A stretch of 64,000 bases of DNA from Pseudomonadota bacterium. GTDB lineage: Bacteria; Desulfobacterota; Desulfobulbia; Desulfobulbales; JAHJIY01. The first letter of the stretch is position 1. Each line of letters starts with the position of its first letter. A program made the translations under genes and the position numbers. The stretch covers positions 8,396 to 72,395 of the forward strand of contig JAHJIY010000085.1 of assembly GCA_018823175.1 (NCBI GenBank), read 5' to 3'. Under the pieces are notes generated by a model. That model did no database searches and had not been told where the DNA came from. It was given only the letters and a program-made list of their open reading frames with translations. Below are positions 10,433 through 39,745 of the stretch, piece after piece.

Positions 10433-10858
10433 TTATTTAATCTTGGATCGGAGATAGGAAATAGTATCATTAATAGTATCTGCCAATTCTTTGAGAGGGT
10501 CTTCCTCCCGTAACTTTATCTCTTTGTCAATGTTGCCAGCCTGAATGATTTTCAAATCTTCTTCTATCCGAAAAACAGGACCAGCCAATTTTTGTGGTAG
10601 GAATAAGGCCAGCAGAGTACCGCTAAACAAGCTGACAAAGGTACCGGCAAGGATAACTGGAATAAGCAGATCACTTACTTTCCTTATTTTGATGTGAGCA
10701 TCATAAAAAGAATTTCCGACTTCCTGGCTCGAATAAAAATACAGGATTATTGCCGCAATAATGGAGCTTAATAATACTGTTCCCAGTATTCTTGTCAACA
10801 ACCACATTTGAAATCTTTTTTTAACTTGGAGATTAAGTTTTTTTCTTTTGTATTGCAT
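10433..10858 (-). CDS. Small 2-TM + HAMP-like membrane protein with no output domain
   Basis: KRK...FQ N-terminus, two hydrophobic helices, LAGPVFR..GN...LR..D.L.ELA..IN HAMP pattern. Confidence 0.65.
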   Translation of the reverse strand: MQYKRKKLNLQVKKRFQMWLLTRILGTVLLSSIIAAIILYFYSSQEVGNSFYDAHIKIRKVSDLLIPVILAGTFVSLFSGTLLALFLPQKLAGPVFRIEEDLKIIQAGNIDKEIKLREEDPLKELADTINDTISYLRSKIK

Positions 10859-10914
10859 TGTTAGCCCGTCCTGTTTTTGAGGGTATACTTGTTTTTGTCA
10901 GGTTGGAGAAATTA

Positions 10915-12117
10915 TTACAGCATATCTTTATGACAACCTACGCAAAGTTCTTTATTGGATGCTTTTATCGTCCGGTATGGAAAGTCGGAACCATGTTTTA
11001 TATGACATGACATGCAGGTTATGCGACCATCCGGCAGAGTAGAATACTCAGGCGGGATGGTCATTCCTTTTTTTGGGTAGACGTTAACCGGATGAGAAAG
11101 CCCCTTTTTGTATTGTTGGTGGCAGTTAAAACAAATTGGGATGGTTAACACAAATGGTTCATTGGTGATTACATGCCGAACCACCTCAAGGCCTTCATCG
11201 TTGTTCCCGTATTGCGGTTTCTTCGTAAGATCCATGGTGCCGAGACTTATTGGAACTGATTGGTTAGCGGAAATTTTAACTAGATAGTTTCCATCGCTTT
11301 GGAATATTTCTGTGTCGATCTTGAAATCTTTGGCTTTTATTCCTTTTTCAACATTGTTGGTTTCAAGATTTGAGAATGTATTTTTTGTTGATAAAGTTAA
11401 TTGATCTGAGACCGTCTGGTTACCGAAAATATCTTCGGAAATTACCTTGAACAAGTATGTTTTGTTGGGCTTGATATCGGTCAGTGTTATTTGATGTTTT
11501 TTGGTGAAGAGGCTTACCTGGGGAGAATAGTTATTTAACTTCTTAAGTCCGTAATTGACCATTGAATTCGCCATTTCGTCAGTTTCCCAGCCGATTGTGG
11601 CTGAAAAAAACAGACCTTTCTCGACTTCGAGTACTTTTACGTTGGTTATTTTGGGAGGTGTATGGTCATTATCATATCGTTTTAGTTCAGCAAGCGGAGG
11701 TAACGGCAGTTCGTTTTGAATGATTTCTTTTTTGTTTACTTCTGCTTCAATTAAAAGGGTGGCCTTTGTTTCGATTAAAAGGCCAGTTTTGGCCTTGGAG
11801 GCAGGAAAGTTGAACCAGTGAACCTGGCTTGGAGTGTAATTGCGACCAAGCCATTTGACGCGGTTCCGCTTTTCGGCCGCTTCTGCATAAAGTTCTTTTT
11901 CCGAGGGAGGAGCGGTATGGCAATCCTGGCATTTTTGTTGTAAAAAAGGTAGGTGAACAAATCGTTTCGAACTCCCTTCCTGCCAGATATCATCATGGCA
12001 GTCGAGACATTTTTCGGCGGCTGATGTCTCGGCAAGGGCCGTTCCGGTCATGGTGACAAAAAGAAGGGCGACCAAGAGGAAAAATCCATAATAATATTTA
12101 TATAGAACTTTAAGCAT
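10915..12117 (-). CDS. Pentaheme c-type cytochrome with internal FN3-like domain
   Basis: Signal peptide (ALA); 5 CxxCH (2 N-terminal, 3 C-terminal); SATIGWETDE...H.ITLTD.KP.KTY.F.V.SEDIFGN fibronectin-III-like segment. Confidence 0.85.
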   Translation of the reverse strand: MLKVLYKYYYGFFLLVALLFVTMTGTALAETSAAEKCLDCHDDIWQEGSSKRFVHLPFLQQKCQDCHTAPPSEKELYAEAAEKRNRVKWLGRNYTPSQVHWFNFPASKAKTGLLIETKATLLIEAEVNKKEIIQNELPLPPLAELKRYDNDHTPPKITNVKVLEVEKGLFFSATIGWETDEMANSMVNYGLKKLNNYSPQVSLFTKKHQITLTDIKPNKTYLFKVISEDIFGNQTVSDQLTLSTKNTFSNLETNNVEKGIKAKDFKIDTEIFQSDGNYLVKISANQSVPISLGTMDLTKKPQYGNNDEGLEVVRHVITNEPFVLTIPICFNCHQQYKKGLSHPVNVYPKKGMTIPPEYSTLPDGRITCMSCHIKHGSDFPYRTIKASNKELCVGCHKDML

Positions 12118-12330
12118 GCTGATCCCTTAAAATATTTGTTAACCCGGACTGACAGGTTTTTGTGGTAATAATGCACGTGGCAATATCACAACAGGGTTTA
12201 GATCAACTTTTTCATTTGGATGAATGTTTACTTTTCTCAATATCAGAATAATCATATCACATTGTAAGGGTGTGGGCAAAGAAGAAAATTTACGGAAACC
12301 AGAGAAAAAATTTATTGGTTATAAACGAAA

Positions 12331-12366
12331 AAAAAGCCCCTATCCTTTTGGATCAGGGGCTTTTTG
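12331..12366. terminator. Bidirectional rho-independent terminator
   Basis: A-run, GCCCT.ATCC-TTTT-GGAT.AGGGGC stem, T-run; just downstream of the gene ending at 12389. Confidence 0.65.
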
Positions 12367-12388
12367 GAAAGAAATTTAAATAGTTTGT

Positions 12389-13126: not shown

Positions 13127-13456
13127 GGTGTATTCCTCCTTGCGCATTTTATTTTAAACGCAAAATTTGTTGTTTTTGAAAAAGTAAAATAGGTTAATTG
13201 TTCAAATGTTATATTAATTAGTCTGGTAATTTTTTTGATCCCGGATGAATTACGATATTATCTCAGGGGGGTAAAATGACTTTATACTTCAATCGTTAAA
13301 AATATTTCTTTAAAATATATTATTTTAACTTAATCACAAAAAAATTTAAACATAACATATAGCGATTAACGCTGGCAACTGTTTTCGGTTAAGTATGGGT
13401 TTGTGTTTTTTTTGGCAAATGATTCCTGCCTTTGCTTTTCAAGTTTGGCTTTAATC

Positions 13457-13702: not shown

Positions 13703-15031
13703 ATGCCCACAAATAAACGATTACTTTCTGTTTCAGTTATTTTCCTGTTTGTCTGTCTAGGAATTTCCATCTTTGCGGGCGATCTTTTTGCTGGTCTTTA
13801 CCTGGATTCCGGACATGGGGGGAGCAATGTCGGCGGACAAGGAGTTATCCGCCTGGTTGGTTACGCCGCTGGTAATTGTGCTCATTGTCATGAACAACAT
13901 GCCAGTATCGGCGGTTCTGAACCGGTACCGAATGACAGTAAGGCTTCTGAGAGGTTGTTATTTAGTGATTTGAAAACCAGCGGATATGACGATAATGATT
14001 TTTGTCTTTATTGTCATGGCGGAACGATTGGTTTTTCAAATGGGGAAGATGATATTGCTGCTCAATTTTCTAAAGCACCTAATTTACAACATGATCCCGG
14101 GACCAATAAATCATTAAATCTGGTTAATGGACCGGTCACCTGCCTGAAATGTCATAATCCGCATGTGGCGCAGTCAAGCCCACCAACAAATACTCATGAT
14201 GAGGCGGTAGATGGTAATCTGGTGACTGGTCCTGGTTCTACCGTGGTTTCAGGTGCTTTGCAGGGGGTCAGTGGAGTCAGTGCATCCTGGGTAGTTCCTA
14301 CCGCACCGGATCCTGGAGCAGAAAATCTTAGCAATCCCACTTATACTGACATTGATCCGATTACTATGGAATATGAGCTTTGTTTGAAATGCCATAGCAC
14401 TGAAGAATCGGCCAGTCCGAATCCTCTAACTCCGCTTGGCGGTCAATTTAATCCAAATAATTACGCCACTCATCCGATTGCGACCACGGCATGGAAGAAT
14501 ACATGGCTTGTCACTAATGCTGGCTCCGGGATGAAAGCACCATGGAATACAGCCGTTGATCAATCAATGTATTGTAGTGATTGTCATGGGAGTGATGGCA
14601 GTGGGTCGCCGGCGGTCGGTCCGCACGGTTCGACAAATGCTTATATTTTAAAGGCTGTCGGCCCAGGTGTGTCCTATGATAATTTATGTGTCAGCTGTCA
14701 TAATACTCTGGCTGCGGGTGGGACTTCTTGGGGGGGGGGCGCCACAGGGCATCATAATCCTCAGCATCAGGAACCAATAAATCCATTGGGATGTGTCGCC
14801 TGTCATGGTGGTAGTTTCGCAAATGGTGACCGGGCAGCCAATATTCATGGCACTAATTATCTGGCACCAACTGTTGACCCTGACCCTGGTCGAACGTCAA
14901 ATAAATTTTTAATGCTGGTTAATAATTATGTGACTGCCAGTAACTATACCGGAACGGATACCGTAGGCAATCGGCAATGCACAACAGTTCCCGGGTGTCA
15001 CTCTAATCCTGGAGGAACACGTACTTTTTAG
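13703..15031 (+). CDS. Secreted multiheme cytochrome c (7 CxxCH + 1 CX5CH; putative octaheme, likely extracellular)
   Basis: Signal peptide; CAHCH, CLYCH, CLKCH x2, CSDCH, CVSCH, CVACH and terminal CTTVPGCH; G/S/T/N/P-rich, low heme density. Confidence 0.88.
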   Translation: MPTNKRLLSVSVIFLFVCLGISIFAGDLFAGLYLDSGHGGSNVGGQGVIRLVGYAAGNCAHCHEQHASIGGSEPVPNDSKASERLLFSDLKTSGYDDNDFCLYCHGGTIGFSNGEDDIAAQFSKAPNLQHDPGTNKSLNLVNGPVTCLKCHNPHVAQSSPPTNTHDEAVDGNLVTGPGSTVVSGALQGVSGVSASWVVPTAPDPGAENLSNPTYTDIDPITMEYELCLKCHSTEESASPNPLTPLGGQFNPNNYATHPIATTAWKNTWLVTNAGSGMKAPWNTAVDQSMYCSDCHGSDGSGSPAVGPHGSTNAYILKAVGPGVSYDNLCVSCHNTLAAGGTSWGGGATGHHNPQHQEPINPLGCVACHGGSFANGDRAANIHGTNYLAPTVDPDPGRTSNKFLMLVNNYVTASNYTGTDTVGNRQCTTVPGCHSNPGGTRTF

Positions 15032-15130
15032 TAATTTTCGTGAGGTGCAAAGAGATGAGTAACTCAAAGAGTATTTGTCTCACAACATGATTTAGGGCTC
15101 GGATTGTCAGTTTCTGAGAATTAATTAAAT

Positions 15131-15165
15131 AAAAAGGGGATATCTTTTAAAGATATCCCCTTCTT
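15131..15165. terminator. Bidirectional terminator between convergent genes
   Basis: AAGGGGATATCT-TTTAA-AGATATCCCCTT inverted repeat with flanking A/T runs. Confidence 0.75.
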
Positions 15166-15184
15166 ATTTATGGTGTGATTTTGA

Positions 15185-17804: not shown

Positions 17805-18701
17805 CTATCGGCTAAAAATCTCTACTCGACCGTTACCCGAATCAACAACGCAAAGTCTTCCCCAAGGGTCGAATAATAGATCCTCCGGATAATAAAGCTC
17901 CCCCCGGCCATGACCTTTGCTCAGGAAGTTATATTTGAAAGAGCCGGTTTGATCAAAAACTGCAATAGTTCCATTGTGTCGATCAAGAATATAAAGAAGT
18001 CCGGCCGGTCCGATCTCTAAAGCAAAAGGAAAAGCCAGGCTGCCTTTTAATTGAATTTTTTCAGATTGAGGGCCGTCTGTATTAAATTTATAAACCGCCT
18101 TTTCGGTCCGGGCCAAGGCCCAAATATTCCCGGATTTGACCGTGAAATCAATGAAGCCGCTGGTGCATTCAGGGCAGCCGTAATGTTTAATTCCTTTTAA
18201 TTTGCGGTCAAAAAGAATTATATCTCCGGAAGATTTGTCCAGAAGATAGGTGTTTTCCCCATCAATAAAAAGTCGGTCGGGAAAGACTGAAACGCCGCGA
18301 TATTGAAGGGAGTGGTTTTCTATTTTTTTCTCTTTGAGGTCTATTTCGGTTAAACTGTTTCTTCCTTTTTCGATGACCCACATTAAACCGTCTTTCTCGC
18401 GAACAATATCAGTAGGCGTCTTAAGTTTGTTGCTGGCGCTGAATGCATTAAGATAGATCCCTTCTCGCTTAAACGAAAGAAGTCGGTTGTTGCCGGCATC
18501 AGCGACATAATAGCGTTCCAATTCCTGGTCGACAAAAATATTCCCCGGCAGCAGCATGGGCTTAGTTTTGTCATCGTTGGGTTGATCGCCTCGCAAGCTA
18601 AATTGCCATTGCCATGGATCTTTGGCCAAGGCAGAGGTAAAACACCCTGAGACCAGGATGAAAAGAGACAATATAATAATCGTCAAATGTGTTTTTCTCA
18701 T
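17805..18701 (-). CDS. NHL-repeat six-bladed beta-propeller protein, exported
   Basis: YVADAGNNR, YILDRHNG and G.G.GELYYP...VVDSGNGRV NHL repeats; N-terminal signal. Confidence 0.85.
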   Translation of the reverse strand: MRKTHLTIIILSLFILVSGCFTSALAKDPWQWQFSLRGDQPNDDKTKPMLLPGNIFVDQELERYYVADAGNNRLLSFKREGIYLNAFSASNKLKTPTDIVREKDGLMWVIEKGRNSLTEIDLKEKKIENHSLQYRGVSVFPDRLFIDGENTYLLDKSSGDIILFDRKLKGIKHYGCPECTSGFIDFTVKSGNIWALARTEKAVYKFNTDGPQSEKIQLKGSLAFPFALEIGPAGLLYILDRHNGTIAVFDQTGSFKYNFLSKGHGRGELYYPEDLLFDPWGRLCVVDSGNGRVEIFSR

Positions 18702-18872: not shown

Positions 18873-20045
18873 TTAATAACTTTTGTGGCACTGGATACAC
18901 AAATCTTTGCCGCCACTCAATTTAAGATTGAATTTGAAATTTGTGCCATGCGGATAGTGGCAACTGACACAAGTCACTTGTTGCCCGGTCCGAGGGTCAA
19001 GGACTGTTCCGCCAACCGGATGAGTAAACTGACCCTGGGTCTTATGACAGGAATCGCACACTTCAATGCCGTTGCCTTTCAGCATCGCCATATTATTTGA
19101 GCCGTGTAAGGCATGGCAATCACTACAGGAGCCGGTATCAGGATGGCTATGCAGGGTGTTATCATATCCGGCAAAGGTGTTGGCGTGGCAGCTGCGGCAA
19201 ATCTGATTCTGGCGGTTTTTCAACATGCTATTACTGTCCGCGGCGTGGGGACTATGGCATTTCACGCAACTATTAACCGCTTTATCAGTCAAATGATTAT
19301 GGGCCGATAAAAGCTGATCCATGATTTCTTCATGGCATTCCAGACATTTATCGGTTTTTACCGGTCCTTTTTCATGACAATCACTGCAGCCTTCTTTGTA
19401 TGGGGCATGCAAAACGTTACGGATCAGGTTCTTTCGTTCGCTACCATGTGGGTTATGGCAGGAAAGACATACGCGCAAACGACCGGGAAACCCTTGGTGT
19501 TTTTGTTGCAAGATATTTTCCTGATGACATTTGCTGCAAAGTTTGTCCGGCTCATCGTTAAGTAATTGAGCCCTTTCAGATTGATGGGCGCGATGACATG
19601 CCCCACAATCACCCTTTTCATAGGGTTGGTGGGTGTAATCATATTTTTTAAGCAGGGTCTTATGACACTTAAAACAGTTTTCACCGGGGGCGCTTTCATT
19701 CAATAATCCTTTATTTGACGAGGCGTGTGGGGCATGGCAAGACAGGCATTCCCCTTTTTTTACCGGTTTGTGAACGATGCCCTTGCTGAAAGATTCAATT
19801 TTATCCTGATGGCATTGGTAACAGAGTTCGGAGACTTCGCTTGATAAGAGATTTTTATAACGGGCAACATGCGGGTTGTGACATGAAGAACATTTGTTTT
19901 CAGCTACCGGGCTATGCACGACCTTGCCACTGAAATTTGCTTTTTTATGGCATTTAAAACAGGTAGTGTTGGCCTCCGCCGAAACAATACTGGTAAAAAA
20001 GCAGGTCAGTAATATTAACAGGGACAATTGAATGTTTTTGTTCAT
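18873..20045 (-). CDS. 16-heme periplasmic cytochrome c (doubled-CxxCH/DmsE-like repeats)
   Basis: 16 CxxCH counted; H.P...C..CH.PH...LL...LC..CH repeats; signal peptide; start overlaps the stop of the 26-heme gene (TAATG). Confidence 0.93.
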   Translation of the reverse strand: MNKNIQLSLLILLTCFFTSIVSAEANTTCFKCHKKANFSGKVVHSPVAENKCSSCHNPHVARYKNLLSSEVSELCYQCHQDKIESFSKGIVHKPVKKGECLSCHAPHASSNKGLLNESAPGENCFKCHKTLLKKYDYTHQPYEKGDCGACHRAHQSERAQLLNDEPDKLCSKCHQENILQQKHQGFPGRLRVCLSCHNPHGSERKNLIRNVLHAPYKEGCSDCHEKGPVKTDKCLECHEEIMDQLLSAHNHLTDKAVNSCVKCHSPHAADSNSMLKNRQNQICRSCHANTFAGYDNTLHSHPDTGSCSDCHALHGSNNMAMLKGNGIEVCDSCHKTQGQFTHPVGGTVLDPRTGQQVTCVSCHYPHGTNFKFNLKLSGGKDLCIQCHKSY

Positions 20046-21976
20046 TATTTTGTCCTCCCTGGGTGGCAGGGATTACATTTCCCTTCCATAAACGGTGTAT
20101 GGCCGACTGGATAAAGCAGGGATTTGTCGAGACCTCCATGGGGATCGTGGCACTTGAGACAAGAATCCGGTCCAGGTTTGATTTCTTTATGTGACTGCAG
20201 AAAACTTTCAGTATTTATCTGATGGCAATCCTGGCAGAGTGACCGGCGGTCTTTTTTCAGGATAGCCACGTTATTCGAGCCATGCGGGGAATGACATTTA
20301 CTGCAATTAATGGTTGCCGGCTGGTGGGCCACTCCATCCTGCCAGTCTTTGGCGATGGCAGAGTGACAGGTAAGACACAGCATGGGCTGTTTCTTGTTTA
20401 GATTGCTGTCGTTGCGGGATCCATGTCCGCGGTGGCAAGTAATGCAGTTAAGAGAGGATACTGGTTTGTGTTCAACTTTGTAATTGGCCAACTCTGTGGC
20501 TTTTTCCGCATGACAGTCAAAACACAATTCGCCGGTTTTCTTCCTGAAAAGAAATTGGTAATCGGCGCTGTGTGCAGAGTGGCAGGTTCCGCATTCGCCG
20601 GAACGGAATGGTTCATGTGTTCCTTCGCCAGATTGGGCTGCGGCCAGTTCCTTATGACAAGTCAGGCATAAGGCGCCGCCTTTCTGGGTTTTATTCAGTA
20701 GTTTTTCAGCGGTCGATTGATGCGGTTGATGGCAACCGGTGCAGTTGCCGGCGCTAAATGGCTTATGAAGGCTGTAGCGGCCTTGTTCTTTGGCTGTTTT
20801 TTCATGACAATCCAGACAGAGATTTTTCTGACTTTTAATCAGTAGGGTTTGTTCTCCGGACTCATGCGGGTTGTGACAAGTCAGGCATTCTCCTTTAAGG
20901 GCCGGTTGGTGAGATATCAAACCTGAACCATAATCTTTTTTCTGATGACAGGTAAAACATAAAGTTGTGGCTGGAGAACGGAGGAGTGATTTTTCAAGGG
21001 ACGCGTGACCTTGATGGCACTTCAGGCAATTTCCATTTTTGGCAGGGGCATGAAGGCTTTTCATCTGTTTGTTCGTATTTTGGCCCTGACTGTGGCAGGC
21101 AAGACAGACTTTTGCTGGTGAATTGTTTAACATCCCGCTGTAATCACTGGCATGTGGCCCATGGCAGGAGGTGCATTTTTTTTCGATATATGGTTGATGG
21201 AGGTGCCCGGCAGCGGTTCCATCGTGGCACTGCAGACAAAGAGTATCGGGCTCATCTTTTATTTTAATATCTTTATTGGCGTCGATCTTATGACATTCAT
21301 TACATTCACCGGCTTTCACCGGGCTATGGAGAACATCTTTCAATAATCCTTTATTATCAGAGCTGTGTGGTGTGTGGCATGACATACAGTTTGATTTTAC
21401 CGGATATTGAAAATGACTATTTTTGAACGAATCAGTGTTCAGATCATGGCATCCCTGGCATAATTCCGTGGTCTTTTTGAGTAACAGGGATTCGTTGTTG
21501 GTTGCGTGGGGATTATGACAGGTTTTACATCCTTGCTGTAATGGGGCGTGAATGTTTGTTTTTACAAAATCACTTCGGTCATGACAGGCAAAACATGCTT
21601 CCTGACCCTCAGCTTTTAAAAGTTTGGAGTATGGGCTGTTATGGACCTCGTGGCAGGCGGTGCATTTCCCATTAGTAAATGGCTGATGTACGGATTTCAT
21701 TGAGGATGAAGCGGCCAGGTCTTGATGACAGCGGTAACAAAGGGCGGGGGGCTCCTGTTTAAGGTAGAGACCGCCGATAAAGCCGTGCGGAAGATGGCAA
21801 TCCTTACAGTCTTTTTTGCGGACAGGTTCATGAACAATACCGGTTAAATACTTGTCGGCCATTTCAGCATGACAATCCAGACATTCCTTTCGTGTCTTTT
21901 GGGAAGGGTTGGTAGTTCCGCACGCTGTAAGGCCCAGGACCATGCAACATAAAATCAATAGAAGTTTATTTTTCAT
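20045..21976 (-). CDS. 26-heme lipoprotein cytochrome c
   Basis: 26 CxxCH counted; lipobox LTAC. Confidence 0.94.
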   Translation of the reverse strand: MKNKLLLILCCMVLGLTACGTTNPSQKTRKECLDCHAEMADKYLTGIVHEPVRKKDCKDCHLPHGFIGGLYLKQEPPALCYRCHQDLAASSSMKSVHQPFTNGKCTACHEVHNSPYSKLLKAEGQEACFACHDRSDFVKTNIHAPLQQGCKTCHNPHATNNESLLLKKTTELCQGCHDLNTDSFKNSHFQYPVKSNCMSCHTPHSSDNKGLLKDVLHSPVKAGECNECHKIDANKDIKIKDEPDTLCLQCHDGTAAGHLHQPYIEKKCTSCHGPHASDYSGMLNNSPAKVCLACHSQGQNTNKQMKSLHAPAKNGNCLKCHQGHASLEKSLLRSPATTLCFTCHQKKDYGSGLISHQPALKGECLTCHNPHESGEQTLLIKSQKNLCLDCHEKTAKEQGRYSLHKPFSAGNCTGCHQPHQSTAEKLLNKTQKGGALCLTCHKELAAAQSGEGTHEPFRSGECGTCHSAHSADYQFLFRKKTGELCFDCHAEKATELANYKVEHKPVSSLNCITCHRGHGSRNDSNLNKKQPMLCLTCHSAIAKDWQDGVAHQPATINCSKCHSPHGSNNVAILKKDRRSLCQDCHQINTESFLQSHKEIKPGPDSCLKCHDPHGGLDKSLLYPVGHTPFMEGKCNPCHPGRTK

Positions 21977-23639
21977 TTACTTTAACCCCGAATTCCTCTC
22001 TGATTTTCTGCCAAATTTCCTGGTTGATTGAAATATTGGCTATTGTTTTAAGTTTATCAATATATTCCTTTTTAATTATATCAGATTTTCCTTTTTTAAT
22101 TTTTTTAGAAATTTCAGTTGAAACTTTTTCAAGAGGAAGGGATCTGCCCTGGATCTGGTTAATCATTTTGACCATGGCATATCCGGCATTATGAACAAAA
22201 GGAGGACTGACTTCGCCTTTGACAAGTTTTTTGAACTCCAGTTGCAGGTTCTCCGGCAGCTTTTCAAGGGGTTCTTGCTTAATCTCGAGGTCTTCACTGT
22301 AATATTTTTTGGCCAAATCAAAAAAGTCTCCCCCCTGGATAATTGAGGCCCATACTTTGCTGACCAGGTTTTCCTCACCGGTCAACATGGCGTAATTGAT
22401 CACAGTAGGCATGGAATATTGAGCCTTGTTTGCTTGGTAATACTGGTCAATTTCCTCATTTGAAATTTGAACCTGAGAAAGCAAACTACTTTCGAGTTCT
22501 GCCTTAAGGCGGTTGCCCTGGTAGAACTCATAAATCCACTTGAGAGGCGGATTTTTTTCGTAATGTCTGTTCATTGATTCCAAGGAAATAAGGGTATCGT
22601 ACACTGCGTTGAATAATATTGTTTTTTTGAGTTCTTCCAAATTGATTGTTTTGTCTATGCCGTACCTGTTTTGATAAGTCCAGTCGTTACTGATGACTCT
22701 TATCATGTCATCAACTGTAATCCCCGTTTCATTTTCAGTCATGGTGACAACTTTTTTGTCTAAAAACTCAGAGGAATAGTTACGGGCCTTTGGGTCAATT
22801 TTGGCCAAGAGGTCTTCATCGATCTGCACATTATATTTCTTCTCAAGACGTTCAATTAGTTTCTGGGATAAATCGTTGGTAGCTTTCTTTACCAGTTCGT
22901 GTTGGCACAACTTTTGTTTTTCTGCGAAATCATCATCCGGGGGTATTAATTGTTCATGCAATCTGAGAAAAATGAATTTGCCGTCGTCCTCGAAAGGTTC
23001 CGCCACATACCCTGGTTTAAGTTTGCGCAAAACAGAAAGCCAATTTTTTTTGTTTTTCTTGGAGCTGAGTGACTCTGGCAGAACCTGTATCTGTTCAAAG
23101 GATATTGGCCCGCCATTTTCCGGTAAAATACCTTTCTGGTCGGTGAACGGGAGGTGTCCTGCCGGCGAACCGTTATACTGTTGCATTTCGTTAAAGGCCT
23201 TCATGGCGTCAGTCTGGTTATTATAGGTTAGGGCCTGAATACGCCAGATAGGGGTATAGTTTTCCTGGTAAAAATCTTTGATATCCTGTGCGCTGATTTT
23301 TATTTTAGAGTCGATCTCTTCATTTTTTAACAACATCATGTTTCGGACTGAAAGGAAGATCTTTAATTTTCTTTGGTAGGATGGAAGATTGTATAATTCT
23401 CTTTCCTTAGCCTGGTTGACCATCAGGTTCCACTCGATGAATGAGTCTGGGGTTTCGGGGAAAGGGGTCTCTTTTTCCTTCCAGTTTTGCCACCAATGGC
23501 GGAAATCATCGGCCGTAAGGTCCTGGCCGTTGATCGAGGCTAAAGGTTTTTCCTGCCCAAACCATGCGCTGGCATTATGGCCGGACAATAATATTATTAA
23601 CAGGCAAAAAGAGATCGGTTTAATTATTTTCCAACGCAT
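21966..23639 (-). CDS. SurA/PpiC-type peptidyl-prolyl isomerase-like chaperone (OscH-like)
   Basis: Signal peptide; LASINGQDLT SurA-N motif; two degenerate rotamase halves (LKPGYVAEPF, DFFDLAKKY, LVKGEVSPPF); overlaps both neighbours. Confidence 0.8.
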   Translation of the reverse strand: MRWKIIKPISFCLLIILLSGHNASAWFGQEKPLASINGQDLTADDFRHWWQNWKEKETPFPETPDSFIEWNLMVNQAKERELYNLPSYQRKLKIFLSVRNMMLLKNEEIDSKIKISAQDIKDFYQENYTPIWRIQALTYNNQTDAMKAFNEMQQYNGSPAGHLPFTDQKGILPENGGPISFEQIQVLPESLSSKKNKKNWLSVLRKLKPGYVAEPFEDDGKFIFLRLHEQLIPPDDDFAEKQKLCQHELVKKATNDLSQKLIERLEKKYNVQIDEDLLAKIDPKARNYSSEFLDKKVVTMTENETGITVDDMIRVISNDWTYQNRYGIDKTINLEELKKTILFNAVYDTLISLESMNRHYEKNPPLKWIYEFYQGNRLKAELESSLLSQVQISNEEIDQYYQANKAQYSMPTVINYAMLTGEENLVSKVWASIIQGGDFFDLAKKYYSEDLEIKQEPLEKLPENLQLEFKKLVKGEVSPPFVHNAGYAMVKMINQIQGRSLPLEKVSTEISKKIKKGKSDIIKKEYIDKLKTIANISINQEIWQKIREEFGVKVNEK

Positions 23640-25964: not shown

Positions 25965-26205
25965 AAGCCTTACCTCTTTCTCCACGAAACCCGGAAAATA
26001 AAAGTGAATAGTGACAAGTTGAAAAGTTATGGCGTTATCTGATTTGACTGTTTTCTGTGTTGCTCGAAGTCTGTCGTTTACCTGGAGTCTATAACTTCAC
26101 AGTTGATACCTCGTGTTATTATACCACAAAATATCAGTTCATTACAGCAGATAGCCCTTTGGATATTTAAATTGTCTTTATCAATTCACTTTTAACTATT
26201 CATAA

Positions 26206-26787: not shown

Positions 26788-26856
26788 GCCTGGTACCCCT
26801 TTATCCTTTTGATTTACGGTTAATCGACTTCTCTGGTCATACAAACGAAGCCGCGG

Positions 26857-28962
26857 TTAATAGGTCGAAAATCTTGCTGTTAAAACACTTTTCAAAATTA
26901 TATCTTCTTGCAAATCGTTCTTGATGTAGTTGCCGATGAATTGCATGAAAATATTGGAACTAACGGTCCAACGCAAGTTAACATCCCCCGAATGGGTGTT
27001 GACGGTTGCATGCGTTATTGAATAGCTCATACTCCCTTGAATTTTCGGGGTTATGGCCAGTACCAAACTGAGGTTGCTGGTTTCCCGTTTACTTTCGCCC
27101 CAAGTTTTTTGTCCAGAGAAGGCCAGGGAAAGAAGGTCGGAAACCCGCCAGCCCATGTTGATTGATGTTTTATAGGTGTCGGTTGTAGTTGTGCTTTGGT
27201 TATTAGTGTATTCGCCGGAAAAGGAGGTGGTTATTTGTGGATTAAGGCGGGCCGAAAAATAAAGTATGGTTGTCAATTGTTTGTTCTCTTTGCTGTCGTC
27301 TTCCGGTTTAGTTGTGGTATGAGTTGCCCGGAGCTGGGAAGAAAGGTCAGGATAAAGCTGGGCGGTGATGTTTGCTGCGAAACTATAATTCTGGGAGGTT
27401 TTCTCGTTATTCGTGTAATTGTCATTGACTGAGCCGTTTAGACCAAGGTCAAGAGTAGGTAGCAACTCTGAATTTAATCCCAAGCCATAGGATTTGATAT
27501 TGGTTTCGGTATAGGATTTGATATTGGTTTCGGTATGATCTGTGTTTTTACGCCAGGAGTCGTTTACGTTAATTTGGGTTTTGAATTTAGTGGTTGGCCG
27601 CCAGGCAATGGATCCGCTTTGGTTCCGGGTCTCTACACTTGTCTCTGTTGGTTGAGATTCGGTCTGGCTCATCGTCAGATTGTAGTTTAGGCTAACTGTT
27701 TCTGTCAGTTGCAAGCCAAGGGAGGCATTGGTCTGGTTTTGGAGATTCTCGGAGGAAGTTGGAACAATAGTCCCGATGGTGCCGGTTATCTGATCAAAGG
27801 CCTCAATTTCGGTAAAGTTGATTGTTCCAGCCCCGGGGTAGTCCAGCAAAACAAGTTTGAGATAGATTTGTTGCTGCTTCTGGACTGGAATCTCAAAACG
27901 ATAGGTATTGTTTATCGGATCGGTGTTATAGATTACGGTATTGGCATCAAGAGTCTCTTGCGCAAAGTTGATGCCGTCAGTGCTTGACCACAACTGCCAA
28001 TTAAAATTATTTGGCATGGCGACGCTGATGTCCACATCCGTATAAAGGTAAATCATATCGACTTCGGCCAGATTTGTTTTCAGATCGATATTATAGTCGA
28101 TCCCCGCTGGCGGGAGGGTGATTGCCGGGGTCAGCAGATCCTGGTTGGTCATGGCAACGGTAACATCGGTAAAAGTAGAACCATCACTGCTCTCAGGGTT
28201 GTCGTCAATGCTCCATCTTATTTGGGAAATCGGCTTGTTCAGCAAGGCAAAGCCACTACTGGTAATCAGAGAATCCTTGTCACTTTGACTGTTTTGCTGT
28301 TGATAAGAAAATGATGTATTGAGGCGATTGTTCCAGAATAAATGGGCGGCCGAGATTCGGGCTGAATAATTTGTGGATATCTCATCATCGTTGCTGATCA
28401 TTGTATTATCTATTTGTCGCCAGTTGCCGCTTAAATATATCTTGGCTAAAATCAGGTTCCAGTTAAGGGTGCCGCCGGCATTAGTCTGTTCTAATTCCTG
28501 GAACCGGCCGCTGGAATTTTGGCCGAAGGAGGCAGTAAGGTTAGGGGCTAATTCATTCTTCCAGGCGCTGGTCAAATAGCTGTCCCAGGAAGTGGATTTG
28601 CTATATCCTGAGATACTGTTATCAATTTCCGTTATTGATCCGCTAAGATCAAGGTCAAACAGGTAGTTTTGAAGATTCATGGATAAGTTTGGTGATAAAT
28701 TTTTGGTGGTTGCGCCGTTTTCGATCCAGGTGATGCTATAACGTATATTTTCCTGGACATTCATTAAGTCAGTGACCGGCTGTTCAAACGATGCGCTATA
28801 TGACTGGCGGTATGATTGGATGAAATTATCATTGTCATCCTCATCAATATTCCAGTTACCGTTAAAGTTGAGATTGACCGCCGGTGCCGGGTTCGGAATA
28901 AGTAGGACAAAGATCATGCCCAGCGCCAGAAGGTAATATCTTTTAATGATTTGTGTTTTCAT
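26857..28962 (-). CDS. Outer-membrane beta-barrel with inserted discoidin (F5/8C)-like domain (porin of the cytochrome conduit; OscE/OetB-like)
   Basis: Signal peptide from ATG 28962; S/T/N-rich alternating beta-strand pattern; aromatic C-terminus (RFSTY); central IYLY..WSSTDGINF..YLKL..EIEAF segment. Confidence 0.72.
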   Translation of the reverse strand: MKTQIIKRYYLLALGMIFVLLIPNPAPAVNLNFNGNWNIDEDDNDNFIQSYRQSYSASFEQPVTDLMNVQENIRYSITWIENGATTKNLSPNLSMNLQNYLFDLDLSGSITEIDNSISGYSKSTSWDSYLTSAWKNELAPNLTASFGQNSSGRFQELEQTNAGGTLNWNLILAKIYLSGNWRQIDNTMISNDDEISTNYSARISAAHLFWNNRLNTSFSYQQQNSQSDKDSLITSSGFALLNKPISQIRWSIDDNPESSDGSTFTDVTVAMTNQDLLTPAITLPPAGIDYNIDLKTNLAEVDMIYLYTDVDISVAMPNNFNWQLWSSTDGINFAQETLDANTVIYNTDPINNTYRFEIPVQKQQQIYLKLVLLDYPGAGTINFTEIEAFDQITGTIGTIVPTSSENLQNQTNASLGLQLTETVSLNYNLTMSQTESQPTETSVETRNQSGSIAWRPTTKFKTQINVNDSWRKNTDHTETNIKSYTETNIKSYGLGLNSELLPTLDLGLNGSVNDNYTNNEKTSQNYSFAANITAQLYPDLSSQLRATHTTTKPEDDSKENKQLTTILYFSARLNPQITTSFSGEYTNNQSTTTTDTYKTSINMGWRVSDLLSLAFSGQKTWGESKRETSNLSLVLAITPKIQGSMSYSITHATVNTHSGDVNLRWTVSSNIFMQFIGNYIKNDLQEDIILKSVLTARFSTY
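27487..27534. repeat. Perfect 24-bp tandem duplication inside the beta-barrel gene
   Basis: ATAGGATTTGATATTGGTTTCGGT x2, encoding TETNIKSY-TETNIKSY. Confidence 0.9.
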
Positions 28963-29375
28963 CAGCTGGATAATATACTTCCCGGTTGTCCGCCAATCCA
29001 CTTAACAAGAGGCGCGTGATAATTTGTCAACCGACGTACCCCCCCCAGGGTACTTCCTTATGAATGTAAAAAATCATCTAACACGTTTAGTTCAGGTTTA
29101 CTTAATTACATATTATTTTTTGATTAACACTAATTTTTAGCCATAAAAAAGGTTATCCAACTCTGTGTTATCTGTAGACAACGTAAAGCATGCAAAATGA
29201 TTTCGCCACAACCTATGCTTAGAGTCAGCGTTATAAGATTGCCACGTCACAAAGTTTATACCCCTTGCGGGGTGCTTCTTGCAAAGACTTGCAAGGTTTC
29301 GTCTCTACAGTAAGCCCAAATTAGATGGTAACCAGATATTATTTCAACTGCATGCAAAGTCCATAATGTACATGT

Positions 29376-29418
29376 GCACCGCCGCCCGCCGGGATATTCC
29401 CCCGGCGGGCGGCGGTGC
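29376..29418. terminator. Strong GC hairpin downstream of the 16-heme gene (terminator or mRNA stabiliser)
   Basis: 18-bp perfect stem GCACCGCCGCCCGCCGGG / CCCGGCGGGCGGCGGTGC; no clear U-tract. Confidence 0.55.
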
Positions 29419-29431
29419 GATTATTCGTCGA

Positions 29432-32847: not shown

Positions 32848-32876
32848 ATAATATCATAAGCATTTGGCGATGTCAA
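32848..32876 (-). promoter_or_regulatory. Near-consensus sigma70 promoter of OmcS-like copy 1
   Basis: Minus strand TTGACA-N17-TATTAT with extended -10 TGn; implies a ~180-nt leader. Confidence 0.7.
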
Positions 32877-33696: not shown

Positions 33697-33730
33697 CGGT
33701 TAGGGTAAATCTCCGGGGTTTGATTTGTTA

Positions 33731-35778: not shown

Positions 35779-37458
35779 TTAATTATTATGATAGAGAAAC
35801 CAGCCGCCCAACAGTCCCAGGGCGGCGACTGGTCCGTAGACCCCGAGCGAAGCCAGGAGCGTCAGGTAACCTGATTTGCCGGCGGGAAAGGTGATGGTCG
35901 CGCCAATTTCCGGGACGGCGACAATTACTTGCGGAGGATTAACGAGCGGCGGGGTCAGGAGGGTCATTTTTTTTTTCGGTGGTTCGATCTGTTTGGGTCC
36001 GATTTTGATTATCTCACCTGGTAATTCGGTGCTTTCTGCGATGAATTTAATTTGGGTCAGGACCGGGCCGGCCAGGTGAGGAGGTTTAACCGGTTTGGCC
36101 GGAGTCGGCGGACTGACCGCCGTAATCTGGGCGGCTTCGGTGTTGGCTACGGTCGGCACCAAAGCCGTTTCAGCCAGCGGCTCTTCCGGTGGGCTGATTT
36201 CCGAAACCTGGGGCAGGGCCGGGCTTAAAACCGGACGCCTGGTTCCCATGTTCGGGTCAATTACCTGTACCCGGCGGTTAAACAGGTCGGCGACGATGAC
36301 GTTCCCTTTTTGGCCGACGGCAATATTGTTCGGGTAATTGAACCAGAGCGGACCGCTACCTTGGCCTCCGAACTCGAAGATATATTTGCCGGTTAAATAA
36401 TCATAACAAATTATGGTGTGGCGCATATAGTCTACCACGTAAATCGCCTGGTGGACTTCATCAATTCCCAGGGCTAGAGGGGTGCTCAGTTTTCCTGTCG
36501 CACCTCCTTTCTCGCCAAAGGCGAGGAGAAACTCGTGTTTATCATTATAAACATAGATCCGGCTGGTTTCGGTGCTTAGCAGATAAATACGTCCTTTTTG
36601 ATCAATGACCACATCGTTCACGAAGACCGGCAGTTTTTGCTCTTTTATGCCAAGAGGTTGATCTGATTCCTTGGCGGTGGGTAGAAACTCTGCCGGCAAA
36701 TTGGCCAGTTCAGCGGCAATTTCCTGGGCGGTTTGATCTTCCGGGGTGATATTGGCCTCGGGGGTCGGAGCCTTTGGTTCCGAAGCTTTTTCAGCTTTTG
36801 GCGCGCGGTAGACAATGTCGGTGGGGGTTATCCAATTAAGAAATTTGCCATTGGGGTCAAGAACCAGAACGCCCTTTGTGTTTTCCTGCTTAGCAAGTAA
36901 GATCCCACATATATAAATATTTCCTTGTTGGTTTACCGCAACGCGGGATGGATTAAAGGAAAGAACCTCAGGAATTTGATCGAAGAAGATTTCTTTTTCC
37001 AGAAAAAATGCGGCATTCAGGATCGTGATTCGTGGACGATTTTTGGGATTTTTAACGCTGGAACCTACTTGTCCTGTTCCCTGGCAAAGATAAATAGAAC
37101 CTTTTTTGTCAACAAAGATCCCAGAAGGGTTAGTGATATTGCGGCCTTGGCCTAGAGAGATCTCCGGGAAATAATCGTCCCCGTAGATGGTTATGCGACC
37201 GGTGGAACTAACGACATAGGTTTCTTTTGTAGTGTAATCGTAGAATACGTCAGTCGGGATATTAATTGGCAATCCCTGATCATCGATTTTTAAGATCGTC
37301 ACCATCCGGATCGGGACCTGGTCGTCAAGCGCCAGGACAATTGACGGGCAGATGACGGCCGTAAGAAAGGCACTCAGGATGCAGAGCTGCACGGTTGATT
37401 TCCGGAGCAAGGCCAAAGGGCCTGATTTTGTATGTATATGTAATAAAGTTACTGACAT
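35779..37458 (-). CDS. NHL-repeat beta-propeller protein with Pro-rich stalk and C-terminal membrane helix
   Basis: NHL repeats (FGEKGGATGKLSTP, FGGQGSGPLWFNYP, VADLFNRRVQ); P/A/E-rich insert and tail; terminal hydrophobic segment. Confidence 0.78.
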   Translation of the reverse strand: MSVTLLHIHTKSGPLALLRKSTVQLCILSAFLTAVICPSIVLALDDQVPIRMVTILKIDDQGLPINIPTDVFYDYTTKETYVVSSTGRITIYGDDYFPEISLGQGRNITNPSGIFVDKKGSIYLCQGTGQVGSSVKNPKNRPRITILNAAFFLEKEIFFDQIPEVLSFNPSRVAVNQQGNIYICGILLAKQENTKGVLVLDPNGKFLNWITPTDIVYRAPKAEKASEPKAPTPEANITPEDQTAQEIAAELANLPAEFLPTAKESDQPLGIKEQKLPVFVNDVVIDQKGRIYLLSTETSRIYVYNDKHEFLLAFGEKGGATGKLSTPLALGIDEVHQAIYVVDYMRHTIICYDYLTGKYIFEFGGQGSGPLWFNYPNNIAVGQKGNVIVADLFNRRVQVIDPNMGTRRPVLSPALPQVSEISPPEEPLAETALVPTVANTEAAQITAVSPPTPAKPVKPPHLAGPVLTQIKFIAESTELPGEIIKIGPKQIEPPKKKMTLLTPPLVNPPQVIVAVPEIGATITFPAGKSGYLTLLASLGVYGPVAALGLLGGWFLYHNN

Positions 37459-37486
37459 TTTGTATTTTGCTCTTTGCGTGAATTGG

Positions 37487-38698
37487 CTAGAACTTCATTT
37501 TCCCGCGATCTCCACCACTATGACACAATAGGCAGATTTGGCCGCCCCGAATGTCTTCGATCAGTAAATACTTGTAGGTTGAGCCGTGGGGATTATGACA
37601 ACTGGTACAGGTAAAGGGCGAACCTTCACGGCGCGGATCTTTTGGTCCGGAAAGGGGGTGTTTCTGCACCGGGTGGTCGTAGTCCATGCCTTCCAGGGCG
37701 CCATGACAACTGGTGCATAATTTGTTAATCGGTTCATACAACTGAAAACGATTATTGGTGGCGTGCGGGCTGTGGCAGGCCACGCAACCCTGGGCATTCA
37801 GGATTCCGTGTATGTTTGCCCGCGGGGTGTCTGTTTGAATGTATTTCTTTTTATCGGCGTGGCAGGCCACGCAGATTTTGCTTTTGCCGTCGGTCCATAA
37901 CTGGTATTGGTTTCGTTCGCCATGGGGGTCATGGCAGATCGTGCAGTCTCCGGTGCCGACCGGCCCGTGAATATGAGACATGCTGCTCCAGGCTCTTTCG
38001 TTGACATGACAGCGAAAGCAGAGTGACTCAATCCTGCCGGTGGGGATGACGACCTTTTCTTCTTTGCTTTTGTCTGATTGATGGCAGGAAAGACAGAAGA
38101 GGTTGGCGGATGGACTGTGGCGCCATTTCGATTCCAGCACGGTCGAGCTGTGACATGAGTAGCAGGTGGTAGAAAGCTGGCCGTAGAGGGCGCGATCTAC
38201 CTGGGCCTCGGTCGGTAGTTTGTTGTCGTGGCAGATGTTACACTCTTTGGGACTGGTGGTCTCGCGGTGAAACAGGTAGGTAGATGTGCTGGAAAAGTCA
38301 ACGTTTAACAGGGAGCGCAGCGGTTTAAATCGGAAGTCAAGCTCCCGGTTTACCGGCGCAATGTTGAATTTGTTGCCGCCTTTTTGCAGGGGAAGTTTGT
38401 AGTGGACGTAATGATTGCCGTCCTTTTCCCATTTGCCGATCGGATCAAAACTGCGGCCATCGGCAGATTTCATCGAAACCTTGGTCAGGTCACCCGATTC
38501 CGTTAATTTCAGGACCACGTGCACCACGGGATTTCTGGAATAGATTTCGCCATCGCTTTTTGGAGCCAGGACTGATATTTCACCGGCCGTGGCTGAAATA
38601 GTGAAACCGGTAAGTGGCATCAGAAAAAAGGCCAGGACTGTCAGGTTGAAGATGATCCTGGTTGATATTGTTTTTTGATTTGGAGTTTGCTCGGTCAA
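37487..38698 (-). CDS. Decaheme cytochrome c with N-terminal Ig-like domain
   Basis: 10 CxxCH counted; signal peptide; LQKGGNKF Ig-like segment resembling the N-domain of 29432..31168. Confidence 0.9.
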   Translation of the reverse strand: MTEQTPNQKTISTRIIFNLTVLAFFLMPLTGFTISATAGEISVLAPKSDGEIYSRNPVVHVVLKLTESGDLTKVSMKSADGRSFDPIGKWEKDGNHYVHYKLPLQKGGNKFNIAPVNRELDFRFKPLRSLLNVDFSSTSTYLFHRETTSPKECNICHDNKLPTEAQVDRALYGQLSTTCYSCHSSTVLESKWRHSPSANLFCLSCHQSDKSKEEKVVIPTGRIESLCFRCHVNERAWSSMSHIHGPVGTGDCTICHDPHGERNQYQLWTDGKSKICVACHADKKKYIQTDTPRANIHGILNAQGCVACHSPHATNNRFQLYEPINKLCTSCHGALEGMDYDHPVQKHPLSGPKDPRREGSPFTCTSCHNPHGSTYKYLLIEDIRGGQICLLCHSGGDRGKMKF

Positions 38699-38710
38699 GG
38701 ATCGCCTCCG

Positions 38711-39745
38711 TTATTTAAGCATGGATTTTTTGAAAAGTAGTTCGTAGGCGCTACGATATTCCTTGGCGGCGTCATCGATTTGTTTTTGTTCTTCAAGCAG
38801 GGTGGCCAGGATATAATGCAGGTTGGCATCCCTTGAGCTGCGCAGCATTAGAAATTTGAGATCGTCAATCGCTTCGCCCGGGTTGCCTTCTTTGGCTTTG
38901 ACTCGGGCCCGGCAAATCTGACCGTCTAGTGAGTCCGGGTTGAGTTTCAGACTTTTGGCCAGAGATTCTTTGGCTAAATCAATTTTATCGATGTCAATAT
39001 AAAGGCAACCCAGTTGCTCGTGGGCTTCGGACATATTCGGTTCAAATTCGACCGCTTTATTAAATTCGATAATCGCCGCGTCCGGCTGGCCCCGCTGGAT
39101 CATGGTCAGGCCCATATGCATGTGGCGTTTGGCGTCTTTTTCTTCCTTGGATTTTTCGACCATTTGAGGGCGTAGCTCCTCTTCGACCTGGGCGCGGGTT
39201 TTTTCGCCCAGCATAACCTCGATTTCGCCTTTCAGTCTTTTGGGAAGGTCACGGCTGTAACCCATGCCGGCCACGACCTTGCCCTGTAGGTCGACCAGCA
39301 TGATCGAAGGCATGACAAAAATGCCTAGTTCACCGTAGGCTTTACGGTCAGGATCCAGATATACCGGCATCGAAAATTCGGCGGCGGCCAGCACTTCGTC
39401 AATAACCTCGGGGCCGTCATTTTGAATATCTATGCTCAGTAGTTGTATTTTTTTATCTTTTAAAAAAGGAGAGAGTTTTTTGATGACTTTGAGGGTGTCG
39501 ATTGAACGTTTTTTCTTGGTAGGAATATCGGCCCCCCAGAAGACCAGCATCGCGTTGTTGTTGCGTAGCTGTTCCAGGGTCATTTGCTGACTGGACTTAT
39601 ATTCGGTCAGGGTGACGGTAGGCAGAGGATCGCCGGGATTAACCGCCCGGAAAGGAAAAGAATTTGCTTCACCGGTACCGTTAAGGAACAAAAGAAATGA
39701 AATAATGCCAACCACCAATGCCGACAAATGTAATCTGTTGCCCAA
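38711..39745 (-). CDS. Exported redoxin-fold (no CxxC) + TPR protein
   Basis: PGDPLP..TL, LVFW, VYLDPD..AY..LG..VMPS.MLVD..GKV thioredoxin/TlpA-like fold with GADIP in place of CxxC; 3-4 TPRs. Confidence 0.75.
   Translation of the reverse strand: MGNRLHLSALVVGIISFLLFLNGTGEANSFPFRAVNPGDPLPTVTLTEYKSSQQMTLEQLRNNNAMLVFWGADIPTKKKRSIDTLKVIKKLSPFLKDKKIQLLSIDIQNDGPEVIDEVLAAAEFSMPVYLDPDRKAYGELGIFVMPSIMLVDLQGKVVAGMGYSRDLPKRLKGEIEVMLGEKTRAQVEEELRPQMVEKSKEEKDAKRHMHMGLTMIQRGQPDAAIIEFNKAVEFEPNMSEAHEQLGCLYIDIDKIDLAKESLAKSLKLNPDSLDGQICRARVKAKEGNPGEAIDDLKFLMLRSSRDANLHYILATLLEEQKQIDDAAKEYRSAYELLFKKSMLK

Follow-up and report, generated by a model that had tools for sequence, protein, structure and literature searches.

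The stretch of DNA studied here, hereafter the window, comprises 64,000 nucleotides (nt) of assembly GCA_018823175.1 (contig JAHJIY010000085.1, positions 8,396-72,395; all coordinates given below are window-based). It carries a cluster of cytochrome, outer-membrane and propeller genes that is real, complete and intact. The cluster represents another case of the already described osc/oet type, known from the omcS-companion (osc) locus of Geobacter sulfurreducens and from sulfate-reducing partners of anaerobic methanotrophic (ANME) archaea. We consider it likely that the genes at 10433-32662, together with a detached decahaem/NHL propeller pair at 35779-38698, constitute the Desulfobulbales version of this extracellular electron transfer cluster. 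The analysis directly provides homology, gene order and predicted folds; the function we infer from homology and from Geobacter genetics, the latter as related in citing papers.

Haem motifs, gene order and the reference osc locus

All open reading frames (ORFs) named in an earlier note on this DNA were recovered from the ORF list at the same positions. That note had counted about 93 haem-binding motifs in eight multihaem cytochromes (5, 8, 6, 16, 26, 16, 6 and 10), and this number holds when canonical and variant motifs are taken together: the eight genes (10915-38698) encode 88 canonical CXXCH motifs, distributed as 5, 7, 5, 16, 26, 14, 5 and 10, plus five conserved variants. Both OmcS-like proteins contribute one CX5CH each, and another CX5CH ends the octahaem cytochrome. 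The remaining variants, a CX4CH and a CX3CH, are found in a 16-haem cytochrome with an immunoglobulin (Ig)-like part, termed Ig-16-haem, and both are kept in 12 of 12 of its homologues. From the genome's own Cys and His frequencies, the chance expectation of CXXCH across these 3,550 residues is 0.009. Genome-wide, 35 of the 11,633 six-frame ORFs with at least 70 amino acids (aa) contain at least four CXXCH, and eight of these 35 are located inside the window.

The minus strand reveals the gene order barrel, lipoprotein, 545-aa protein, lipoprotein, peptidyl-prolyl isomerase (PPIase), 26-haem, 16-haem, NHL propeller, OmcS-like cytochrome and YVTN propeller. As described in the earlier note, this run is co-oriented and its central genes overlap, by 1 nt (16-haem/26-haem), 11 nt (26-haem/PPIase) and 16 nt (PPIase/lipoprotein), which suggests co-translation. 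Family scans of the window proteins with Pfam and NCBIfam placed cytochromes, PPIase, NHL propellers and the DUF4382/YVTN propeller in the families to be expected, and gave no above-threshold family for the barrel or the three genes after it. An Rfam search of the window found no RNA family.

The osc cluster of G. sulfurreducens extends from GSU2504 to GSU2493 (Shen et al. 2025, Cell Chem Biol, via PMC13194489 and PMC12977616). In these two papers, GSU2501 and the eight-gene block GSU2500-2493 are linked to maturation and secretion of OmcS, and GSU2495 is the 26-haem protein (PMC12977616); OscC, OscI and OscJ denote GSU2501, GSU2495 and GSU2494, respectively (PMC13194489, PMC12977616). Folding is assigned to OscH, secretion to OscE/F/G and morphology to OscD (PMC13194489). 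Of 401 genomes in the class holding locus L067, 95 have a 26-haem homologue at E<=1e-100, and 20 kb from one of those 95 genomes serve as our reference locus, L081. Because its end ORF is 100% identical to residues 126-407 of OmcS (PDB 6ef8), L081 represents the omcS locus. On its minus strand it encodes OmcS, a second OmcS-like protein, a 1035-aa gene product, a 437-aa OmcS-like protein and a 498-aa propeller with one CXXCH, followed by a 729-aa barrel, a 199-aa lipoprotein, a 392-aa protein, a 578-aa PPIase, the 660-aa 26-haem cytochrome, the 16-haem cytochrome and a 301-aa NHL protein. As a side observation, the 16-haem gene of the reference (L081:2689-4029) is distributed over two overlapping frames, one ORF of 446 aa containing 10 CXXCH and one of 118 aa containing 5.

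Hidden Markov models (HMMs) of the window families match the propeller (E 1.4e-54), the barrel (8.4e-64), the lipoprotein (1.4e-46), the PPIase (1e-41) and the NHL protein (4.3e-33) of L081, and the two 26-haem proteins align by BLASTP with an E-value of 3.5e-126. The 392-aa protein of the reference is composed of two tandem modules, of which the first matches the 545-aa family (1.3e-20) and the second the 209-aa family (1.1e-23). The core genes are hence homologous to and nearly colinear with those of L081 (HMM E-values of 1.1e-23 or lower, 1.3e-20 for the 545-aa family), in good agreement with the earlier assignment to the osc cluster. By position, the letters OscE, OscF, OscH, OscK and OscD may be given to the barrel, the first lipoprotein module, the PPIase, the NHL protein and the YVTN propeller, respectively, and OscG to the 545-aa protein together with the third module (Table 1). 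Judged from these alignments, the lipoprotein modules number three in both window and reference and are split differently between genes.

Related loci were collected with an alignment of the 26-haem protein, scanning one genome per species; a search of the genome contigs with the single barrel sequence had revealed no relative. The scan gave 181 loci, 80 of which were kept, and counts out of 80 refer to these throughout. Each six-frame ORF was assigned to its best-matching window gene, and many incomplete loci are cut by contig ends. The 80 loci belong mostly to Desulfobulbia, Desulfuromonadia and Thermodesulfobacteria, and include those of the cultured Hydrosulfovibrio ferrireducens (L025), Malonomonas rubra, Thermodesulfatator autotrophicus, and the Seep-SRB1 bin Desulfobacterales C00003060 (L076).

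PPIase, 26-haem, 16-haem and NHL genes are colinear in 61/80 loci, and nine core genes (barrel, lipoprotein, 545-aa protein, lipoprotein, PPIase, 26-haem, 16-haem, NHL and OmcS-like) in 40/80. A pair of pentahaem and HAMP-like genes is colinear in 20/80 loci. The decahaem gene and its 559-aa NHL neighbour are colinear next to the cluster in 8/80 and form the only recurrent part of the right-hand third. Seven loci (L005, L016, L025, L031, L032, L037 and L040) have the whole window order in common, beginning with the upstream OmcS-like gene and ending with the HAMP gene. On the basis of this gene-by-gene recurrence, 10433-32662 is taken to be the conserved unit and 35779-38698 a recurrent accessory pair, detached here by the housekeeping gene pyrF (32974-33696) and the gene of a tetratricopeptide repeat (TPR) membrane protein (33731-35647), which split the region.

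The extent of 10433-39745 proposed beforehand thus contains the unit and is too wide beyond it: pyrF and the TPR membrane protein interrupt, and homologues of both pyrF and the redoxin-TPR gene occur in 0/80 loci. Those of the two TPR membrane proteins occur in 2/80 each. Consequently, pyrF, the TPR membrane protein and redoxin-TPR were rejected as members of the system. Of the extra modules listed in the earlier note, Ig-16-haem, pentahaem, octahaem and decahaem do recur near the cluster in relatives, and the redoxin-TPR gene does not.

The host genome is a metagenome-assembled genome (MAG) of 4.1 Mb in 111 contigs, 94% complete. No 16S ribosomal RNA is present in the MAG, and for this reason its taxonomy was read from the names of HtpG matches and from a tree of the 26-haem protein. 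The HtpG protein shares 70-75% identity with proteins that bear the names Desulfurivibrionaceae, Desulfobulbales or Desulfobulbaceae, and both dsrA and aprA score above the cut-offs of their families. A quick tree was built from 75 26-haem proteins, 13 rows having been left out as fused, short or secondary matches. Here, the window protein falls into a Desulfobulbia-dominated clade (45 rows; support 96 in the Shimodaira-Hasegawa-like approximate likelihood ratio test, SH-aLRT), and its nearest rows are a Desulfurivibrionaceae and a Desulfobulbaceae MAG; local support is weak there (90 and 82). Of 301 genomes sampled from the class, 87, this genome included, match the barrel profile, and they cover 38 of 71 genera. 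This is in line with the literature: the cluster has been mapped onto class Desulfobulbia (Murali 2023, PMC10553843), and Desulfurivibrio alkaliphilus holds two copies of the operon (Skennerton 2017, PMC5539420). The occurrence outside Geobacter, stressed in the earlier note, therefore stands as to the host, a Desulfobulbales bacterium by HtpG and tree. It is expected rather than new, since 87/301 class genomes carry the barrel and the cluster has already been reported there.

OmcS-like cytochromes, outer-membrane components and accessory genes

Both hexahaem genes encode relatives of OmcS. OmcS is the sole PDB match for either protein, and a profile of 50 OmcS-like members matches 6ef8 with E=5.8e-25 over OmcS residues 8-348 of 407. 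OmcS-like #2 occupies the GSU2501/OscC position upstream of the machine genes, with the Ig-16-haem gene intervening before the barrel. In most complete loci, an OmcS-like gene follows the NHL gene.

The motif CxxCHTxH is invariant in 50/50 aligned OmcS-like proteins and reads CHTMH in both window proteins, where its last His, three residues past the first CXXCH, aligns with His16 of OmcS. We take His16 to be the inter-subunit haem ligand of the OmcS filament. Haem ligation by a His from the adjacent subunit is described in general terms in PMC12307469. Altogether, 13 His are invariant across the 50 aligned proteins, enough for six bis-His haems.

The two Cys and the His of the CX5CH motif are likewise invariant in 50/50 proteins, and the motif aligns to the region of the third haem motif of OmcS. 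The pattern of five CXXCH, one CX5CH and CxxCHxMH is found in 92 of the 114 OmcS-like proteins of the fetched loci; the two complete OmcS-family ORFs of L081 have six CXXCH each, the third, OmcS itself, being cut by the locus end. A literature search for 'CX5CH' and 'CXXXXXCH' returned nothing, although other spellings and supplements may still mention such a motif. The genome also encodes three Cytochrom_C_asm (CcsA/CcmC/CcmF-type) paralogues (C88:53976-54590, C6:24271-24882, C69:9828-10460); that one of them serves the variant haem motifs is pure speculation. Two more OmcS-like genes are located elsewhere in the genome, at C93:71492-72718 and C57:22967-24037. Contig C93 additionally contains, outside the window, a 2,909-aa ORF with 58 CXXCH (C93:5797-14526).

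The barrel fold proposed in the earlier note is supported by an AlphaFold2 (AF2) model built on 66 sequences, which is all-beta with a mean predicted local distance difference test (pLDDT) value of 92.7. The model has about 28 long strands, and a further beta domain is inserted near residues 245-375. Foldseek gives TonB-dependent transporters and the PapC usher as top matches at template modelling (TM) scores of 0.2-0.3, and MtrB is not among the 50 matches listed. Pfam and NCBIfam yielded a sub-threshold DUF2808 match only and no MtrB/PioB-type porin family; a membership in the MtrB family was therefore rejected. A full HMMER search revealed 234 family representatives after clustering at 50%, the closest being 34% identical; a word-index search had found one relative only. 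A complex prediction of the barrel with lipoprotein module 1 scored 0.00, below the mark, and is uninformative as to binding. In seven genomes, five of one genus and two of another, the barrel-profile match spans one in-frame TGA, which could be a start-site artefact or indicate a recoded or broken gene.

The three genes downstream of the barrel appear to belong together. Among 41 members of the 212-aa family, 37 match LpoB, 30 GNA1162-like and 19 CsgG (E<=0.01), and LpoB is matched by 11/41 members of the 209-aa family. By hhalign, module 3 matches module 1 at 99.9%, and the N-terminus of the 545-aa protein matches both lipoprotein families at 99%. For the remainder of this protein, Foldseek lists Ig/FN3 arrays (AF2 pLDDT of 84.4). 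We thus assign the two probable lipoproteins and the 545-aa N-terminus, on profile similarity, to the LpoB/GNA1162/CsgG/TolB_N superfamily as paralogues. The window protein at 26206-26844 stays below the CsgG threshold, and its only match is GNA1162-like with 22.4 bits at a cut-off of 25.9. The labels 'CsgG/PelC-like' and 'CsgG+Ig' used earlier consequently hold at the superfamily level and not as family membership, because the family matches are sub-threshold and the relation is established through the family members. True CsgG channels were rejected on account of these sub-threshold matches and the short modules.

All 26 CXXCH of the 26-haem protein are invariant in 24 aligned homologues; it has 1449 relatives, the closest being 51% identical. 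In 64 of 72 homologues of the 16-haem protein, 16 CXXCH are found. Fused 26+16-haem cytochromes (about 1,010-1,040 aa, 42 CXXCH) replace the separate genes in L045, L051, L053 and L060, and comparable proteins, about 1,020-1,090 aa long, are on record under the names Zixibacteria and Latescibacterota. A homologue of Ig-16-haem with 55-62% identity directly precedes the barrel in 12/80 loci. In many relatives, the octahaem gene lies between the OmcS-like and YVTN genes and in the same orientation as these; a paralogue on contig C45 (54% identity) has a CX4CH where the window protein ends in CX5CH. No protein of the cluster is better conserved than the HAMP-like one, with up to 64% identity in 21 loci, and a second pentahaem and HAMP-like pair at C5:4798-6486 is 49% and 74% identical to that of the window.

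Table 1. Features of the cluster in window coordinates.
Feature	Position	Strand	Basis and remarks
Small membrane protein, 141 aa, HAMP-like region	10433..10858	-	Weak matches; conserved pentahaem partner
Pentahaem cytochrome	10915..12117	-	Weak FN3-like middle part
Octahaem cytochrome	13703..15031	+	7 CXXCH + CX5CH; inverted here
Bidirectional terminator-like hairpin	15126..15170		After YVTN gene, closes main minus-strand run; pattern match only
DUF4382 + YVTN beta-propeller, 489 aa	15185..16654	-	No haem motif; OscD-like; downstream end
OmcS-like #1, 350 aa	16737..17789	-	5 CXXCH + CX5CH; phmmer vs 6ef8 E=1.8e-8
NHL six-bladed beta-propeller lipoprotein	17805..18701	-	Lipobox VSGC; Pfam NHL E=2.4e-11; OscK-like
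16-haem cytochrome	18873..20045	-	Ordinary signal peptide; counterpart GSU2494/OscJ; fits OetA description
26-haem cytochrome	20045..21976	-	Lipobox LTAC; counterpart GSU2495/OscI; fits OetB description
Periplasmic PPIase chaperone	21966..23639	-	Rotamase_2 (Pfam E=1.3e-14); OscH-like
Lipoprotein module 3, 209 aa	23624..24253	-	Matches second half of reference 392-aa protein
Secreted 545-aa protein	24348..25985	-	N-terminal alpha/beta module + three Ig-like beta-sandwich domains; OscG position
Lipoprotein module 1, 212 aa	26206..26844	-	LpoB/GNA1162/CsgG superfamily (Pfam by members, HMM); OscF-like
Large outer-membrane beta-barrel, 714 aa (701 aa from second Met)	26857..29001	-	AF2, family HMM; GSU2499/OscE position, putative OetI role
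19-bp GC-rich hairpin	29375..29419		Between Ig-16-haem and barrel genes; possible attenuator or terminator; pattern match only
Ig-16-haem cytochrome, 578 aa	29432..31168	-	Non-haem Ig-like N-terminal part; 14 CXXCH + CX4CH + CX3CH
OmcS-like #2, 344 aa	31628..32662	-	5 CXXCH + CX5CH; signal peptide; phmmer vs OmcS 6ef8 E=3.1e-9
Promoter-like site TTGACA-17-TATTAT with TG extension, 11/12	32848..32876	-	Upstream of OmcS-like #2; consensus match only
Accessory pair, decahaem (37487-38698) then 559-aa NHL propeller (35779-37458)	35779..38698	-

Further ORFs lie in and around the cluster. Paralogous lipoprotein-like ORFs, 33% identical and without a family, are found at 12389-13147, inside the cluster, and about 10 kb away at 1430-2305; a homologue occurs in 1/80 loci (L033). 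The accessory module is flanked by three large membrane proteins (33731-35647, 40304-41983 and 41998-44187), two with C-terminal TPR repeats, one of these with a weak DUF6056 match, and one resembling an STT3-type oligosaccharyltransferase. They may represent a protein-glycosylation set. One such protein adjoins the cluster in relatives, STT3-like in L013 and the TPR protein in L001 and L044.

Proposed function and competing explanations

Taking the reported roles of OscH, OscE/F/G and OscD as a guide, the PPIase, the barrel with its three modules and the propellers would make and export OmcS-like subunits. Exported hexahaem subunits would be folded in the periplasm by the OscH-like PPIase and would leave through an outer-membrane passage formed by the barrel of about 28 strands and the three paralogous LpoB/CsgG-type modules. 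Outside the cell, the OmcS-like proteins, which keep the putative inter-subunit haem-ligating His, would polymerise. The 26-haem lipoprotein and the 16-haem periplasmic cytochrome would move electrons between periplasm and surface, corresponding to the roles of OetB and OetA, and the NHL and YVTN propellers would act as accessory or morphology factors. Electrons might flow out to minerals or in from a partner. Along this line, the organism may be able to build conductive filaments, as the earlier note had it. The promoter-like site and the hairpins (Table 1), pattern matches only, would allow for high expression of the subunit and lower expression of the machine.

Several points weigh against this reading. 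By BLASTP, the window proteins are no more than 20-37% identical to their Geobacter counterparts, a low value. The OscD-like propeller of the window is located downstream and is devoid of CXXCH, as are its relatives (0/48), whereas that of the reference is located upstream and has one. The third haem site of the window OmcS-like proteins is a CX5CH, a putative haem site. Among the Geobacter relatives of OmcS, only OmcS itself is known as a wire (PMC12977616), and polymerisation of distant relatives (about 30% identity or less) is therefore not assured. The roles given to the Osc proteins are those found in papers citing Shen et al. (2025). The models in the literature, one of a conduit and one of an assembly machine, have still to be reconciled. 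Finally, a search for sequencing runs listed only DNA runs of one biofilm-metagenome study, among them possibly the source run, and no RNA runs.

One alternative is a pure porin-cytochrome conduit after the OetABI model (Murali 2023, PMC10553843, which also covers OmcS-like expression in consortia). Here, the barrel would sheathe the 16- and 26-haem cytochromes, the OmcS-like proteins would be monomeric or loosely attached, and lipoproteins and PPIase would only aid assembly of the conduit. The lipobox of the 26-haem protein and the ordinary signal peptide of the 16-haem protein are as described for OetB and OetA in PMC10553843, the barrel is large enough, and the singular standing of OmcS as a proven wire points in the same direction. 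However, the barrel is without a Pfam match above threshold, so none to the MtrB/PioB type, and the Foldseek matches listed do not include MtrB. Moreover, Geobacter osc mutants are reported to be affected in folding, secretion and morphology of OmcS (PMC13194489), and both the invariance of the inter-subunit His motif (50/50) and the place of the OmcS-like gene behind the NHL gene in most complete loci count against this model. We regard a conduit without filaments as improbable.

A silent or decaying acquisition, horizontally gained and unused by this sulfur-metabolising organism, appears less probable still. In its favour, PMC5539420 and PMC10553843 stress that the cluster is frequently transferred; in the window, moreover, the octahaem gene stands inverted and one module is set apart by pyrF. 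On the other hand, all cluster genes are intact with no internal stops, and the 26 and 16 haem motifs are all retained. GC content is unremarkable (0.40-0.51 in the cluster, 0.44-0.54 in the flanks), and the position of the 26-haem protein, in a Desulfobulbia-dominated clade near Desulfurivibrionaceae and Desulfobulbaceae MAGs, agrees with the HtpG affinities of the host. Elsewhere, the genome has two more OmcS-like genes along with another pentahaem/HAMP pair and another octahaem gene, which suggests active use.

Within the preferred reading of an osc/oet-type cluster that assembles OmcS-like filaments, a more specific proposal can be put forward with considerable doubt. The cluster-linked OmcS-like proteins of Desulfobulbia, many Desulfuromonadia and Thermodesulfobacteria might form a filament type of their own, with the third haem bound via the invariant CX5CH. 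Its export machine would always comprise three distinct LpoB/CsgG-like modules, with fusions and splits that vary from lineage to lineage, and the highly conserved Ig-16-haem protein, whose gene neighbours that of the subunit, would be the filament base or a second polymer.

Comparison with known systems

The locus is largely ordinary and by itself opens no new question. It adds a rather divergent example of the osc/oet type (best 26-haem match 51%, best barrel match 34%) in an uncultured Desulfobulbales lineage with dissimilatory sulfur genes, and it lends support to cytochrome-based extracellular electron transfer being common in class Desulfobulbia.

With MtrCAB and PioAB, the window shares the concept of a large outer-membrane barrel encoded beside multihaem cytochromes, one of them a lipoprotein. 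It differs from these systems in that no sequence-family match exists, lipoprotein modules, PPIase and propellers are added, and its cytochromes, with 26 and 16 haems, are of a far greater size.

With the OetABI/26-haem operon, the four-gene core of six-bladed propeller, 16-haem, 26-haem and PPIase is shared, as are the combination of barrel, lipoprotein cytochrome (26-haem, LTAC) and periplasmic cytochrome (16-haem, plain signal peptide) in one cassette and the presence of OmcS-like genes therein; class Desulfobulbia is among the listed holders. The core reported from ANME-partner sulfate reducers is indeed represented by a homologous operon in Seep-SRB1 bin C00003060 (L076), whose 26-haem and 16-haem proteins are 36%, the NHL protein 29% and the PPIase 22% identical to those of the window. 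Barrel homologues with 22-24% identity hold the same position in L074 and L079, the 26-haem proteins of which cluster with the Seep-SRB1 bin. The window host, by contrast, is not a known ANME partner, and its 26-haem protein is placed in the Desulfobulbia clade, apart from the Seep-SRB1 sequences.

Compared to OmcS itself (PDB 6ef8/6nef), both window proteins reveal the same hexahaem layout with a putative third site, the N-terminal CxxCHTMHNS including the presumed subunit-bridging His, and the conserved C-terminal CLSCHRAH. They are about 60 residues shorter and of low identity, and the third CXXCH is replaced by CX5CH.

In the osc cluster of Geobacter and in the window alike, an OmcS-family hexahaem gene is located upstream of the machine genes, and barrel, LpoB/CsgG-type modules, PPIase, 26-haem, 16-haem and NHL follow in the same order, with a YVTN-type propeller homologue in addition. 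The window has three separate module genes, the middle one with three Ig-like domains, versus one single and one tandem two-module gene in the reference. Its OmcS-like proteins comprise 344-350 aa versus 430-437 aa in the two complete reference ORFs, with CX5CH versus CXXCH at haem site 3. Counterparts of the 1035-aa gene and of omcS/omcT proper are confined to the reference, whereas Ig-16-haem, octahaem, pentahaem + HAMP and decahaem + NHL are extras of the window. The practical value of the locus lies in this gene-by-gene map onto the Geobacter osc cluster, with three lipoprotein modules as a constant feature and a conserved CX5CH in the OmcS relatives outside Geobacter.

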